A DNA stretch of 11,465 nucleotides from a virus (taxonomy: Duplodnaviria; Heunggongvirae; Uroviricota; Caudoviricetes): the IMG/VR virus record IMGVR_UViG_2534681766_000006; one strand, given 5' to 3'. This document shows, one piece after another, positions 3,602 to 5,839 of the stretch. The position numbers and the translations under genes were made by a program. The stretch's first letter is position 1. Each line of letters begins with the position of its first letter. The notes under the pieces were generated by a model that made no database searches, had not been told where the DNA came from, and saw only the letters and a program-made list of their open reading frames with translations.

Positions 3602-3964
3602 TTAACGACCTGCTGCGCGGAGTTTTCCGTCAGGTTCACCGGCAAGAGTCAGTAATTGTCCCTGGTCTTCCTGCAGAATAGTCAGGCGACCACCGCGATT
3701 GACATACATCGGCGTTTCGGTGGTGTCTTCTTCGGAAATTTTCCCGCGGTTAGTTGGGCGAACATATGAGAGTTTGTGTTTGATTTTCACACGGTTCTCA
3801 TCAAACGGTTCGATTTCCAGATTGAGTGAGACCTTCCCTTTGGTTTTCGTGTTCATCACACCGGAAGCGACCTCACTGAGAACTGCGCCGATTTTGGTTT
3901 CAAATACGCCGCCGTCCAGCCCCCCGATAAATGCCTGCACATCAGTACTGCGTTCGCTAGCCAT
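3602..3964 (-). CDS. yfdP: YfdP-like early protein, 120 aa
   Basis: Start chosen at internal ATG 3962-3964 with GAGGAG 8 nt upstream; the N-terminal extension of ORF 3602..4129 is Arg/Cys-rich GC-region junk. Confidence 0.7.
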   Translation of the reverse strand: MASERSTDVQAFIGGLDGGVFETKIGAVLSEVASGVMNTKTKGKVSLNLEIEPFDENRVKIKHKLSYVRPTNRGKISEEDTTETPMYVNRGGRLTILQEDQGQLLTLAGEPDGKLRAAGR

Positions 3965-3979
3965 TTTGCTGCTCCTCAT

Positions 3980-4430
3980 CATATCGACCCTGCAAGGTCG
4001 GTTGGTTTCTCCACAAAACAGAGAAGAACACCTGCGGTGGCAGCCGCCCGGATGGATTGGGTTATGAGCCCGTCGTCCGGTGATGCTCTTCTCTGTTTTG
4101 CAAAAAAGGACGGTACCAGCCGGAAGCAAGGGTACAAACTGGTACCGCCAGGACTACACACAGCATAAAGTTGTGGTGCCGGGTGCCTCCCGGTGCCTGG
4201 CGAAGGTTGCACACCAGGCGGGGGGGTATCCACAGAAGGTCGACTGTCAGCCTCAACCTTAACCCGCGTGCGCTGAGCCGCATTCACCACAACGCTAAGG
4301 ATTCTCTCTGGTTGAAAATACTTAGCTGTTATGTGCCTGCTTTTAGCCACATCAGGCGAGGTGGACCTGGTTATTCCCCAACAACAAGGATTCGGTTAAT
4401 CTGGATATCCCCAACAACAATAAGAGTATT
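3980..4430. other. GC-rich, ORF-poor, inverted-repeat-rich region; candidate structured RNA or leader of the early-left operon, or long 5' region of the convergent moron
   Basis: 14-bp perfect inverted repeat CAAAACAGAGAAGA (4014-4027) / TCTTCTCTGTTTTG (4087-4100); 9-bp stem CGGTACCAG (4111-4119) / CTGGTACCG (4139-4147); further CCGGG/CCCGG and CCTGG/CCAGG pairs; ORFs here are Pro/Gly/Arg-rich and implausible. Confidence 0.35.
4375..4420 (+). repeat. Two copies of the direct repeat TCCCCAACAACAA (4375-4387 and 4408-4420), 33 bp apart, just upstream of the moron start
   Basis: Exact 13-mer duplication read directly; flanking TAT(T) also conserved; GGA motifs lie between the copies. Confidence 0.6.
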
Positions 4431-4458
4431 CAATGTGATCGCTGAATTAACGGCAGCA

Positions 4459-4950
4459 ATGACGGCTATTCGTGAAACAGCCCAGATTGCAAAACTAATG
4501 AACGAGGCAAAAACTCAAGCTGAAGTAAATGCGGCTATTGGTGAGCTGAACTCAAAGCTTGCGTCTATTCAGCGCGAATGCGTGTCTCTCGTTGAACTGG
4601 TGGGCTCTTATCAAGAAATAAATGCTTCTCTCAAAGCTAAAATTGCAGAATTCGAAAACTTTGAGGCTCAGACGGAAGGCTATATCCTTAACCAACTTGA
4701 GTCGGGTACTTTTGTATACTCGAAGGAGGTAATCGTGAACGGTGGCAGCATAACCATGCATCTTTGCCCAAAATGTTTTGGACAAAAGATAGTATCGATA
4801 CTTCAACCATTCCCGGTTAGCGAAGATGAGCTTTTTCATAAAAGCAGGTGCCTCCACTGTGAAAATAAGTTTCTGATGAATAAAAATCCGGATTACGTAT
4901 CGCCTCCATCCATTGAGGAGTTGTCCAGAAAACTTAACGGCAATCTGTAG
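4459..4950 (+). CDS. Hypothetical moron protein, 163 aa: N-terminal coiled-coil plus C-terminal C4 zinc ribbon (CPKC-x24-CLHC); function unknown
   Basis: Low-GC ORF (about 42% by eye) convergent with PL, followed by its own terminator. Start uncertain (ATG 4459 or GTG 4435, both with weak RBS); in-frame GTG 4735 has a perfect AAGGAGG SD 5 nt upstream. Confidence 0.65.
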   Translation: MTAIRETAQIAKLMNEAKTQAEVNAAIGELNSKLASIQRECVSLVELVGSYQEINASLKAKIAEFENFEAQTEGYILNQLESGTFVYSKEVIVNGGSITMHLCPKCFGQKIVSILQPFPVSEDELFHKSRCLHCENKFLMNKNPDYVSPPSIEELSRKLNGNL

Positions 4951-4988
4951 ATTACTACTGTTGTGGATATCCAGATTGTTAAAGAGCT

Positions 4989-5013
4989 AAGCGTCCTGTA
5001 GGGCGCTTTTTTG
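4989..5013 (+). terminator. Rho-independent terminator of the moron gene
   Basis: Stem GCGUCC / GGGCGC (one G-U pair), loop UGUA, followed by UUUUUU (5007-5012); weaker and without a U-tract in antisense. Confidence 0.6.
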
Positions 5014-5089
5014 TTGCTAACGAATCATCCTGGACTTCATATGCCCCAGGCGGCTACTTCGTGGGCGTCCTGCCTGTTTGTTGTTTCTC

Positions 5090-5126
5090 TTGGGTACATT
5101 ATGTATCTCATAGGTACATTGTCAAG
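5090..5126 (-). promoter_or_regulatory. OL/PL-like region: sigma70 promoter reading leftward with overlapping operator repeats
   Basis: Minus strand TTGACA (plus 5120-5125), 17-nt spacer, ATAATG (plus 5097-5102). Operator-like GGTACAT motifs: GGTACATTATGTATC (includes palindrome TACATtATGTA) and GGTACATTGTCAAG. Confidence 0.6.
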
Positions 5127-5128
5127 TA

Positions 5129-5151
5129 TAAAAAAACCTGCCGAAGCAGGT
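5129..5151 (-). terminator. Rho-independent terminator downstream of cI
   Basis: Hairpin ACCTGC-cgaa-GCAGGT (5136-5151); minus-strand RNA follows it with UUUUUUUAU (plus A-run 5129-5135). Confidence 0.6.
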
Positions 5152-5164
5152 TCATAAACATTGA

Positions 5165-5839
5165 TTAGGCTTTGATTTTGTATCTTCTTGGTTTTCCTGA
5201 GAAAATCACAGTTCCAATTATAGAGCAATTACCGTTGATCTTAATGTAAGGCTCAGGCCAGTTTGGGTTTAACGCTTTGAGATAACGCTGTGTCCCATCT
5301 TCTATCAACCTTTTGAAGGTGGTTTCACCTGTATCGTGCATCAATGCAATAACGTCGTCACCGTGGCAGGCAGGTACTTCAGGATCGACAAAAATCATGT
5401 CTCCCGGGCGGTACTCATCAATCATTGAATCACCTATCACCCGCAAGATATAAGTCATTTCCCCACAGGGTACAGGGCAGGGATACGTTTCTGCTGTGCT
5501 CAAATCAACCTCAGAATATCCAACTTCTTTCCATGCTCCGGCCTGTACCCATGATATGACAGGGACTAATGTGATTTGTTTATTAGTGATTGAAACATCA
5601 GGTTTTTTTGTGATGTTCGTTGTCTGGTGTTCTTGATCGAGCCATCCGACAGGCAGGGCGAAACATTTTTCGATGTGTCGTGCCATGCTGTCACCGATAT
5701 TTTTAGTAGCACCATCTCCCATAAACCTGCTGGTCTGGGTTGGCTCGCGATCAATCATAGTGGCAAAGGAAGAATTCCCTCCAACACCATCTCTCAGTTT
5801 TCTGGCGTTAGACCGCCGGATGTCATGGATTGTTTTCAT
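5165..5839 (-). CDS. cI: CI-type prophage repressor with C-terminal S24 (LexA-like) autopeptidase domain, 224 aa
   Basis: C-terminal half aligns with P22 C2 (WVQAG.W, GDSM Ser nucleophile, TFKRL Lys, NGNCSIIG); ATG at 5837-5839 has essentially no SD, consistent with leaderless translation from PRM. Confidence 0.9.
   Translation of the reverse strand: MKTIHDIRRSNARKLRDGVGGNSSFATMIDREPTQTSRFMGDGATKNIGDSMARHIEKCFALPVGWLDQEHQTTNITKKPDVSITNKQITLVPVISWVQAGAWKEVGYSEVDLSTAETYPCPVPCGEMTYILRVIGDSMIDEYRPGDMIFVDPEVPACHGDDVIALMHDTGETTFKRLIEDGTQRYLKALNPNWPEPYIKINGNCSIIGTVIFSGKPRRYKIKA

Follow-up and report, generated by a model that had tools for sequence, protein, structure and literature searches.

A conserved structured RNA module with an RprA-type seed at the head of the early-left operon of N-less lambdoid prophages

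What occupies the 450 bp or so that separate the plus-strand 'moron' gene from yfdP, the first early-left gene, in an N-less lambdoid prophage? The question is raised by an 11,465 nt stretch of viral DNA (IMG/VR record IMGVR_UViG_2534681766_000006; hereafter the window, with positions counted from its first base), in which an initial annotation had described positions 3980–4430 as G+C-rich, full of inverted repeats and devoid of any credible open reading frame (ORF). The window represents the early region of a lambdoid prophage of the N-less SfV / ST64B / e14 type, in which, as had been remarked before, no N-like gene is evident; its identity to Escherichia phage PhiR49_1 is 99.5 %, and the Shigella phages SfV and SfIV are close relatives. 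We find that the region between the moron and yfdP holds a non-coding RNA module, structured and conserved, with which the early-left operon begins. From its structures and their conservation and covariation, its family resemblance, the identity of its seed and its genomic context, we consider it probable, though well short of certain, that it gives rise to a DicF-style small RNA (sRNA), which would be released from the early-left operon by termination and processing, would mimic the host sRNA RprA and is presumed to act in trans.

The only sigma-70 match that a promoter scan of positions 3900–5200 returned is the early-left promoter PL (11 of 12 positions), which lies on the minus strand, and we therefore read the 3980–4430 region as leftward-transcribed, minus-strand RNA. 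Transcription of this strand is also favoured by G-U pairs and by better folding: the minus-strand RNA of 3966–4160 folds at −85.7 kcal/mol (z = −5.4, with none of 200 shuffles as good), against a weaker z of −3.7 for the plus strand. The elevated G+C content is real (55–56 % over 3901–4350 compared with 43–49 % in the flanks), and both of the inverted repeats reported earlier are present, although each turns out to be part of something larger. The perfect 14-bp repeat (4014–4027/4087–4100) extends to 24-nt arms with 83 % complementarity (4014–4037/4077–4100), and is the core of a 25-bp stem with G-U pairs that forms only in the minus-strand RNA. The 9-bp repeat CGGTACCAG/CTGGTACCG (4111–4119/4139–4147), first described as a GGTACC stem, belongs to the 13-bp stem of an intrinsic terminator on the same strand (Table 1).

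Among the functions that had been proposed for the region, a structured leader or non-coding RNA is the one that the data bear out, with conserved, covarying structures on the PL-transcribed strand and a match to the STnc100 sRNA family. At the gathering thresholds of Rfam nothing is found in the window; a permissive scan (E≤10) gave STnc100 (RF02076) at 4100–4323(−), with 40.3 bits, an E-value of 2e-7 and all of model positions 1–206 of 206, together with a weak DicF match. The full-length architecture of the family is present, comprising a closing helix, inner hairpins and, as the 3′ end of the match, the intrinsic terminator. A scan of viral contigs with an invariant 24-mer of the core yielded 120 loci. 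Two arrangements occur: in class A, which is window-like, the core is followed by seed, terminator and then a three-way junction, while in class B a terminator comes before the core and an ORF directly after it; the core of one class-B relative, L115, scores 51.3 bits and so exceeds the STnc100 cutoff. When 13 diverse cores were aligned, 23 consensus pairs emerged, with 97 % of cells paired and seven pairs showing compensatory changes (CCGGG/CCCGG to CCUGG/CCAGG, for example); the covariation score was reached by none of 500 shuffles, and slid controls were 27–49 % paired. Covariance analysis of relatives, which the initial annotation had called for, thus supports both the core and the three-way junction through compensatory changes. 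Because the single-sequence minimum free energy (MFE) fold of the 271-nt RNA does not give the comparative structure, our structural claims rest on covariation and not on the MFE.

The single-stranded stretch between the core and the terminator is identical at 14 of 14 aligned positions to a segment of K-12 rprA, the RprA sequence being taken from PMC7311995. This identity is longer in some relatives, amounting to 20 nt in phiES15 and 26 nt in LLS (AUUGCUGUGUGUAGUCUUUGCCCAUC), where it reaches into the RprA terminator stem, and a string search of the literature found GCUGUGUGUAGUC only in papers listing RprA. It is standard for Hfq-dependent sRNAs to have a single-stranded seed immediately in front of an intrinsic terminator, as here. 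In ST64B, phiES15 and LLS the terminator hairpin is of unrelated sequence, with the hairpin and U-run both kept; in all, the hairpin persists in four lineages despite differing in sequence, and in diverged phages both it and the hairpin of the 14-bp repeat are preserved by compensatory changes. Compensatory mutations have established that the anti-site Ib of RprA base-pairs with ydaM as well as with csgD mRNA, the latter at about −96 to −87, and RprA60-105 is a known natural fragment (PMC3465796). The window seed is perfectly complementary to csgD site Ib over 13 nt, so that the same 13-bp duplex is possible, and the predicted energy of this duplex (−23.7 kcal/mol) compares with −15.1±2.4 kcal/mol for shuffles, 99.8 % of which it beats. 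The similarity begins only at RprA nt 62, and the whole RprA model (RF00034) has no match in the window at E≤10.

The three-way junction that follows the terminator takes the terminator U-tract as part of the 5′ strand of its outer stem. RNAalifold applied to eight junction variants gave 39 pairs, eight of them with compensatory changes, which are seen among the window, ST64B, Kp4866-6, LLS and L067, and the junction contains invariant U-G pairs that are compatible with the minus strand only. One of its two inner hairpins is invariant in sequence, and the other keeps its shape and varies in sequence; no Rfam family matched the junction at E≤10. RNase III substrates consist of about two turns (≥20 bp) of near-perfect double-stranded RNA, which the 25-bp outer stem provides, and we regard the junction as a candidate RNase III site or leader element. 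The invariant inner hairpin contains CGGGCUCAUAACCC (4059–4072, minus strand), which is the same as nt 29–42 of the E. coli initiator tRNA-fMet and includes three anticodon-stem G-C pairs and the loop CUCAUAA; the hairpin is predicted to fold as the tRNA-fMet anticodon stem-loop. The longest substring common to the hairpin and metZ is 14 nt, a length reached by none of 1000 shuffles, for which the maximum was 12. Exactly this hairpin sequence is present in 60 loci, ST64B/Kp-type copies deviate from it by single bases, and the e14 copy is degenerate. We considered a tRNA gene or remnant and rejected it, as ARAGORN was negative and the match is limited to the anticodon arm. The small hairpin that folding places beside the yfdP ribosome-binding site is swapped for other small hairpins in module variants.

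Ahead of the core the module has two further elements, a conserved box and a hairpin denoted P1. The box is nearly invariant in SfV, phiES15, LLS, Hafnia phage Pocitis76 and EcoM-689R2, is present once in the window where none is expected by chance, and in LLS starts about 15–20 nt past the PL start; it could represent the hairpin at the 5′ end of the leftward RNA or else belong to a rightward promoter/operator. We note that on the minus strand of phage vB_EcoM-689R2 (L134:1440–1560) and Hafnia phage Pocitis76 (L133:1440–1550) the STnc100-type core is missing, and the box leads within about 15–30 nt into a short seed with an intrinsic terminator. In 689R2 this seed is of the RprA type; that of Pocitis76 differs. 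Both units have the appearance of compact sRNA genes lying divergently to a plus-strand gene, which is sieB in Pocitis76. Since the box stands directly before seed and terminator in these coreless units, we suggest that it is the 5′ end of the sRNA unit. The position of P1 is filled in ST64B, phiES15, L091, LLS and L108 by helices of wholly different sequence which, in the alignments, always abut the core. The L108 helix encloses an insertion with a tRNA T-arm-like motif, CUGGUUCGAUUCCAG, and L118 (4506–4632, minus strand) has an Rfam tRNA match about 300 nt upstream of its class-B core.

The class-B loci connect the core with DicF. The RNA before the core in this class is DicF (Rfam, 76 bits in L028 and L093) and the ORF after it is DicB; K-12 Qin has this order, with the core at L130:2436–2609 between dicF and dicB, and the STnc100-type core is therefore the dicF–dicB spacer. 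In some Qin-type operons (L094, L024 and L057) the dicF slot is occupied by the RprA-type seed, joined to a terminator of the DicF type. Qin's PL-type operon is the dicB operon, which is repressed by DicA and has no internal promoter, DicF arising from the operon promoter only, through termination and cleavage by RNase E as well as RNase III, and the 72-nt form of DicF has as its 3′ end an RNase III cut beyond the terminator (PMC5069750; bioRxiv 10.1101/2023.04.14.536235). By simple arithmetic (53+19 nt) the end of the 72-nt form in K-12 would map to the 5′ strand of the 16-bp closing helix of the core, which suggests that the closing helix of the Qin core is an RNase III site. The setting of the window module is DicF-like, namely a repressor-controlled early-left operon, an end at an intrinsic terminator and an adjoining conserved core.

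The module is widespread, being found in 2780 of 5426 complete E. coli genomes, with coverage of at least 80 % in 1824. About 60 of the 67 class-A loci have a same-strand repressor gene upstream, at a median distance of about 1 kb, and most of the others lack upstream sequence; these counts may be off by one or two loci, alignment rows having been read as sequences. LLS and ST64B have no annotated gene between the repressor gene and yfdP, and the first gene after the module varies among phages (yfdP, kil and others). A copy with 87–89 % identity is present in the K-12 element e14, between ymfI and xisE and directly upstream of xisE-intE, where it is annotated as the coding sequence (CDS) ymfH (L135:2469–2780); it comprises box, core, RprA-type seed, terminator and junction, and ymfH is probably a mis-annotated non-coding region. 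The e14 ymfH region is induced together with xisE and intE upon DNA damage in a way that depends on cleavage of LexA (PMC11228462), and from this co-induction it follows that the homologous e14 region is transcribed on induction and that its terminator is at least partly read through. Neither a prophage RprA-like RNA nor a description of ymfH as an RNA was found in the searchable literature, the coverage of which is incomplete, so that this is weak evidence of novelty.

Table 1. Features of the RNA module and its surroundings in the window
Feature	Position	Strand	Description
Leftward genes			int, yfdT, eaE, HD hydrolase, yfdQ (DUF2303), yfdP
yfdP	3602–3964	−	First early-left gene downstream of the RNA module; phrog_204, E 8e-49; start as SfV orf32
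yfdP ribosome-binding site	3972–3977	−	GAGGAG
Small hairpin	3985–4000	−	Just upstream of the yfdP ribosome-binding site; from folds
Three-way junction	4008–4106	−	Just upstream of yfdP; 25-bp outer stem; invariant and variable inner hairpins
Inner hairpin	4054–4074	−	GACGGGCUCAUAACCCAAUCC; invariant
Rho-independent terminator	4102–4149	−	13-bp stem 4137–4149/4109–4121, including the GGTACC repeat, then U6 (4107–4102)
Seed	4152–4165	−	UGCUGUGUGUAGUC; single-stranded; identical to RprA nt 62–75 (anti-site Ib)
STnc100-type core	4170–4293	−	Closing helix GUUGUGGUG/CACCACAAC (4285–4293/4170–4178), invariant UGGUGAAUGCGGCUNAGCGCACGCGG, hairpin CCGGGAGGCACCCGG
P1 hairpin	4294–4326	−	GCUAAG...CUUAGC inverted repeat; stacked on core
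Conserved box	4327–4364	−	CCACCUCGCCUGAUGUGGCUAAAAGCAGGCACAUAACA; 38 nt; contains hairpin GCCUG...CAGGC
Moron-side spacer	4365–4434	+	Two 13-nt direct repeats TCCCCAACAACAA at 4375–4387 and 4408–4420
'Moron' gene	4435–4950	+	171 aa, phrog_1244; antisense to PL transcript; own terminator 4989–5008
PL promoter	5098–5125	−	TTGACA-16-CATAAT; GGTAC-type operators on both sides (read directly from the sequence)
cI	5165–5839	−	Further right OR/PR, cro and a CII-like gene

These elements can be assembled into a plausible course of events. Upon derepression of PL, RNA polymerase would cross the antisense moron and then transcribe the box, P1, core, seed and terminator. Termination at 4102–4107 would release an STnc100-like sRNA of about 225–265 nt, from which cleavage just upstream of the seed would generate a short form equivalent to RprA60-105, and the sRNA would act in trans, presumably with Hfq, on mRNAs recognized by the RprA seed such as csgD and ydaM/dgcM. 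Transcripts that read through would acquire the second strand of the 25-bp stem, which would pair with the U-tract to form the three-way junction, and RNase III would likely cut this stem and separate the sRNA from the yfdP-yfdQ-...-xis-int mRNA, as happens to DicF in Qin. We infer the transcript ends, the Hfq dependence, the processing by RNase E and by RNase III and the trans-regulation of RprA targets. No sigma-70 promoter that could serve the sRNA itself was returned by the scan of 3900–5200, and candidates picked by eye near the box are weak and inconsistent between relatives.

Several observations weigh against a DicF-style sRNA that mimics RprA. The window falls below the STnc100 gathering score (40.3 against 47 bits), and its copy lies between PL/cI and yfdP, whereas canonical STnc100 and PasD belong to the late region of prophages, in the vicinity of Q, stx and the esterase and lysis genes. 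The DicF model (RF00039) reaches 15.7 bits at 4108–4162(−), over the terminator, against a gathering score of 48, and complementarity to ftsZ is within the shuffle range (69 % of shuffles as good), so that the duplex energies lend no support to DicF-type ftsZ targeting, in a crude, low-power test in which real DicF is also weak. The rpoS-activating 5′ domain of RprA is absent from the window RNA. Two class-A relatives, L089 and L091, have other sequences at the seed position (AGCCACUGCUU and CCAUGCCAGUGCAAUCUU), a pattern that suggests swapping of seeds on a constant scaffold. Transcript levels may be low, as about 800 nt, including an antisense gene with its terminator, separate the core from PL, and a simple sRNA of seed plus terminator does not account for the strictness with which box, core and inner hairpin are conserved. 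The searchable literature holds no experimental support for the module RNA.

Among the other explanations, a purely cis-acting mRNA leader comes closest, though we think it unlikely; its hairpins would process, stabilize or translationally control the yfdP operon mRNA, much like the RNase III site of the lambda N leader, and the likeness to RprA would be without function in trans. Such a leader would account for the position of the 25-bp stem, immediately before the first gene, and for the small hairpin abutting the ribosome-binding site, it accords with the presence of the module in front of different first genes in different phages, and the invariant inner hairpin suggests a specific ligand; it leaves unexplained 14–26 nt of identity to a host sRNA seed, held single-stranded before a terminator, and the occurrence of that seed in the dicF slot of other operons. 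As a rival it is only partial, being compatible with the DicF-style sRNA as far as the junction is concerned. We think it distinctly less likely that the module is a cis-acting processive antiterminator or anti-pausing RNA, put-like or of a new kind, in which the core, box or junction would replace N by binding RNA polymerase and allowing read-through at 4102–4149 and at later terminators. The put RNA of HK022 makes RNA polymerase resistant to terminators through the β′ zinc-binding domain. A put-type antiterminator was among the original proposals, and the LLS genome paper speculates along similar lines for this phage group (PMC12315714); moreover, there is no N-like gene yet at least one good terminator before yfdP (two in LLS), the core is always in a repressor-controlled early operon, in two element types, its invariant loops suggest binding of a macromolecule, and the e14 data show read-through to xisE and intE. 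We built a covariance model from HK022 putL and putR, placed by the residue numbering in PMC9378689; the model comprises these two sequences and leaves out variants such as that of HK639. It recovers putL and putR at 91–92 bits, and in the window, SfV, ST64B, LLS and phiES15 no hit exceeds 9 bits, the best window score (6.4 bits) being at an unrelated place. There is no second copy of the box or core motifs in the 11.5-kb window, including the 5.5 kb to the right of PR, and because the conserved motifs are single-copy in the window there is no putR-like partner on the PR side. The core is also far from PL and ends in a terminator, and the put proposal is not supported. Other kinds of antiterminator have to contend with the free, terminated sRNAs that the same core family gives (STnc100, PasD), with the placing of the Qin core after the DicF terminator, with EcoM-689R2 and Pocitis76, which have box, seed and terminator and no core, and with the fact that partial read-through, as in the dicB operon, requires no antiterminator.

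The initial annotation considered a distal CI site for looping, and a DNA-level element of this kind, or a promoter/operator for the divergent moron, would fit the GGTAC motifs that the hairpin has in common with OL and OR, the resemblance of the box plus a following TATNCT to a rightward −35/−10 pair in SfV, phiES15 and some others in the alignments, and the finding that 4365–4434 travels with plus-strand genes. We nevertheless regard it as very improbable: the GTAC motifs are spaced by N6 rather than the N7 of both OR operators, the GGTACC hairpin is in 28 loci with distantly related repressors compared with 17 with the cI of the window and co-occurs with at least three other repressor types, and ST64B, LLS and phiES15 substitute unrelated hairpins with a U-run. 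Compensatory changes and G-U pairs, too, indicate selection on RNA and not on DNA sites, and the window is without TATNCT after the box. To protein coding we give the least credence of all, whether by the 43-aa ORF at 4037–4168(+) that is annotated in PhiR49_1, the 123-aa ORF at 3979–4350(−) or the K-12 ymfH frame. Public records do annotate CDSs in the region, although the annotations of ST64B, SfV and LLS are empty here; every frame meets stops or frame shifts in relatives (ST64B, LLS, phiES15, Kp4866-6 and three viral contigs among them) or has similarity that jumps between frames, indels in the variable parts do not keep frame, and the translations are rich in proline, glycine and arginine. 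The absence of a credible ORF thus holds up.

A long 5′ untranslated region for the moron had also been proposed, and could extend over 4365–4434 at most, the conserved RNA being on the opposite strand. In phages of Klebsiella, Hafnia and E. coli it accompanies other plus-strand genes, and it is probably the moron promoter and leader, outside the RNA module. Its TCCCCAACAACAA repeats are 33 bp apart, relatives having CCCCTACAG repeats at the same spacing; sites for a regulator and an unstructured leader for translation of the moron are two possible roles. The moron product has a PHROG match (E-value 9e-60) over residues 5–156, covering profile positions 5–153 of 157; since the phrog_1244 profile fits from the GTG at 4435, the open N-terminal extension of this frame into the region is non-coding. 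Searches for a Pfam or PADLOC assignment of the product gave none; the protein is a coiled-coil with a CxxC motif, its gene is convergent with PL transcription, and other phages have unrelated plus-strand genes at this position. In the PL transcript, the first 70 nt or so (ACAGGCAGGACGCCCACGAAGUAGCCGCCUGGGGCAUAUGAAGUCCAGGAUGAUUCG; 5020–5089, minus strand) are common to SfV and Salmonella phage ST64B, although the operators of ST64B differ. This leader, a candidate for a cis-acting element, has a covarying stem (CCUGG/CCAGG as against CCGGU/ACCGG). It includes CAGGAUGA, located outside the module some 55 nt downstream of PL, which looks put-like by eye and is at about the same distance as in HK022 putL; in ST64B it is part of the covarying CCUGG/CCAGG stem, which is unlike put stem II, and as the put model gives no match we rejected it. 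The early-right region of ST64B encodes the Hfq-binding RNA isrK (RF01394, 64 bits; L004:5232–5308, plus strand).

The kinds of RNA to which the module is compared are already known: prophage Hfq-type sRNAs, sRNAs embedded in operons, which termination and processing generate, and phage-encoded mimics of host sRNAs, of which StxS is one. What appears to be undescribed in the searchable literature is an RprA seed combined with an STnc100 scaffold within a PL operon, the conserved three-way junction attached to it, and the identity of ymfH with this RNA. A stretch annotated as a hypothetical protein (ymfH) or left blank thereby becomes a defined RNA locus, and STnc100/PasD, DicF and RprA, hitherto handled as three separate sRNA families, appear as combinations of exchangeable modules, namely scaffold, seed and terminator. 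A broader proposal, which we put forward tentatively and think rather less likely than not to hold in full, is that prophages in about half of complete E. coli genomes, including e14, carry the RprA seed on an STnc100-type scaffold, release it on induction and take over the seed regulon (csgD and ydaM; curli and biofilm) independently of Rcs, and that the adjoining junction, with its copy of the tRNA-fMet anticodon stem-loop, is a possible new cis element that might bind the ribosome, an initiation factor or methionyl-tRNA synthetase (MetRS), or replace N-type antitermination. If true, this would be phage pirating of a host sRNA seed, tying prophage induction to curli and biofilm control. For early-left gene expression in N-less phages of the SfV/ST64B/LLS type the choice of mechanisms narrows: at this site a put homologue drops out, and leaky termination together with processing, in the style of the dicB operon, is enough.

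Comparison with known systems places the module among several relatives. HK022 putL and putR resemble it in lying downstream of an early promoter in an N-less lambdoid phage and in being structured RNAs with irregular stems, but there is no match in sequence or structure, they are two copies where the window has one, and the window RNA is far from its promoter, terminator-ended and about 260–360 nt long against about 70 nt. StxS, the sRNA from the PR′ leader of Shiga-toxin phages, mimics core-genome sRNAs by binding the rpoS site used by RprA, DsrA and ArcZ (PMC7547250). Like the RNA proposed here, it is a phage RNA made by termination in a regulated phage operon and imitates a host sRNA; it differs in belonging to the late operon (PR′/tR′) and in sequence, and it mimics rpoS activation whereas the window RNA copies the other seed of RprA. 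With RprA itself the window has in common the seed of nt 62–75, single-stranded and directly before the terminator, but it is without the 5′ domain, and hence without the rpoS-activating site (around C42) and csgD anti-site II, it is without the Rcs-controlled promoter, and its terminator is different.

The closest likenesses are to STnc100/PasD and to DicF. STnc100 and PasD are free, terminated sRNAs detected through Hfq-bound RNA–RNA interactions, and the window RNA has in common with them a full-length model match, a closing helix of the form UGGUG.../...CACCA, CCGGGAGGCACCCGG as an invariant hairpin, a variable stretch that is single-stranded and precedes an intrinsic terminator, and a prophage location; it differs in remaining under the curated cutoff, in a first inner hairpin of other sequence, in its RprA-type seed and in preceding a conserved three-way junction. 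The dicB operon of Qin offers the parallel of an sRNA, here a proposed one, within a repressor-controlled early-left operon that has an intrinsic terminator and continues past it, with the identical STnc100-type core in the dicF–dicB spacer, a window-type seed in some dicF slots, and long helices suited to RNase III beside the terminator. The order is reversed, however, with core then sRNA in the window and sRNA then core in Qin, the downstream genes are yfdP and yfdQ and not dicB, and complementarity to ftsZ is here no greater than expected by chance.

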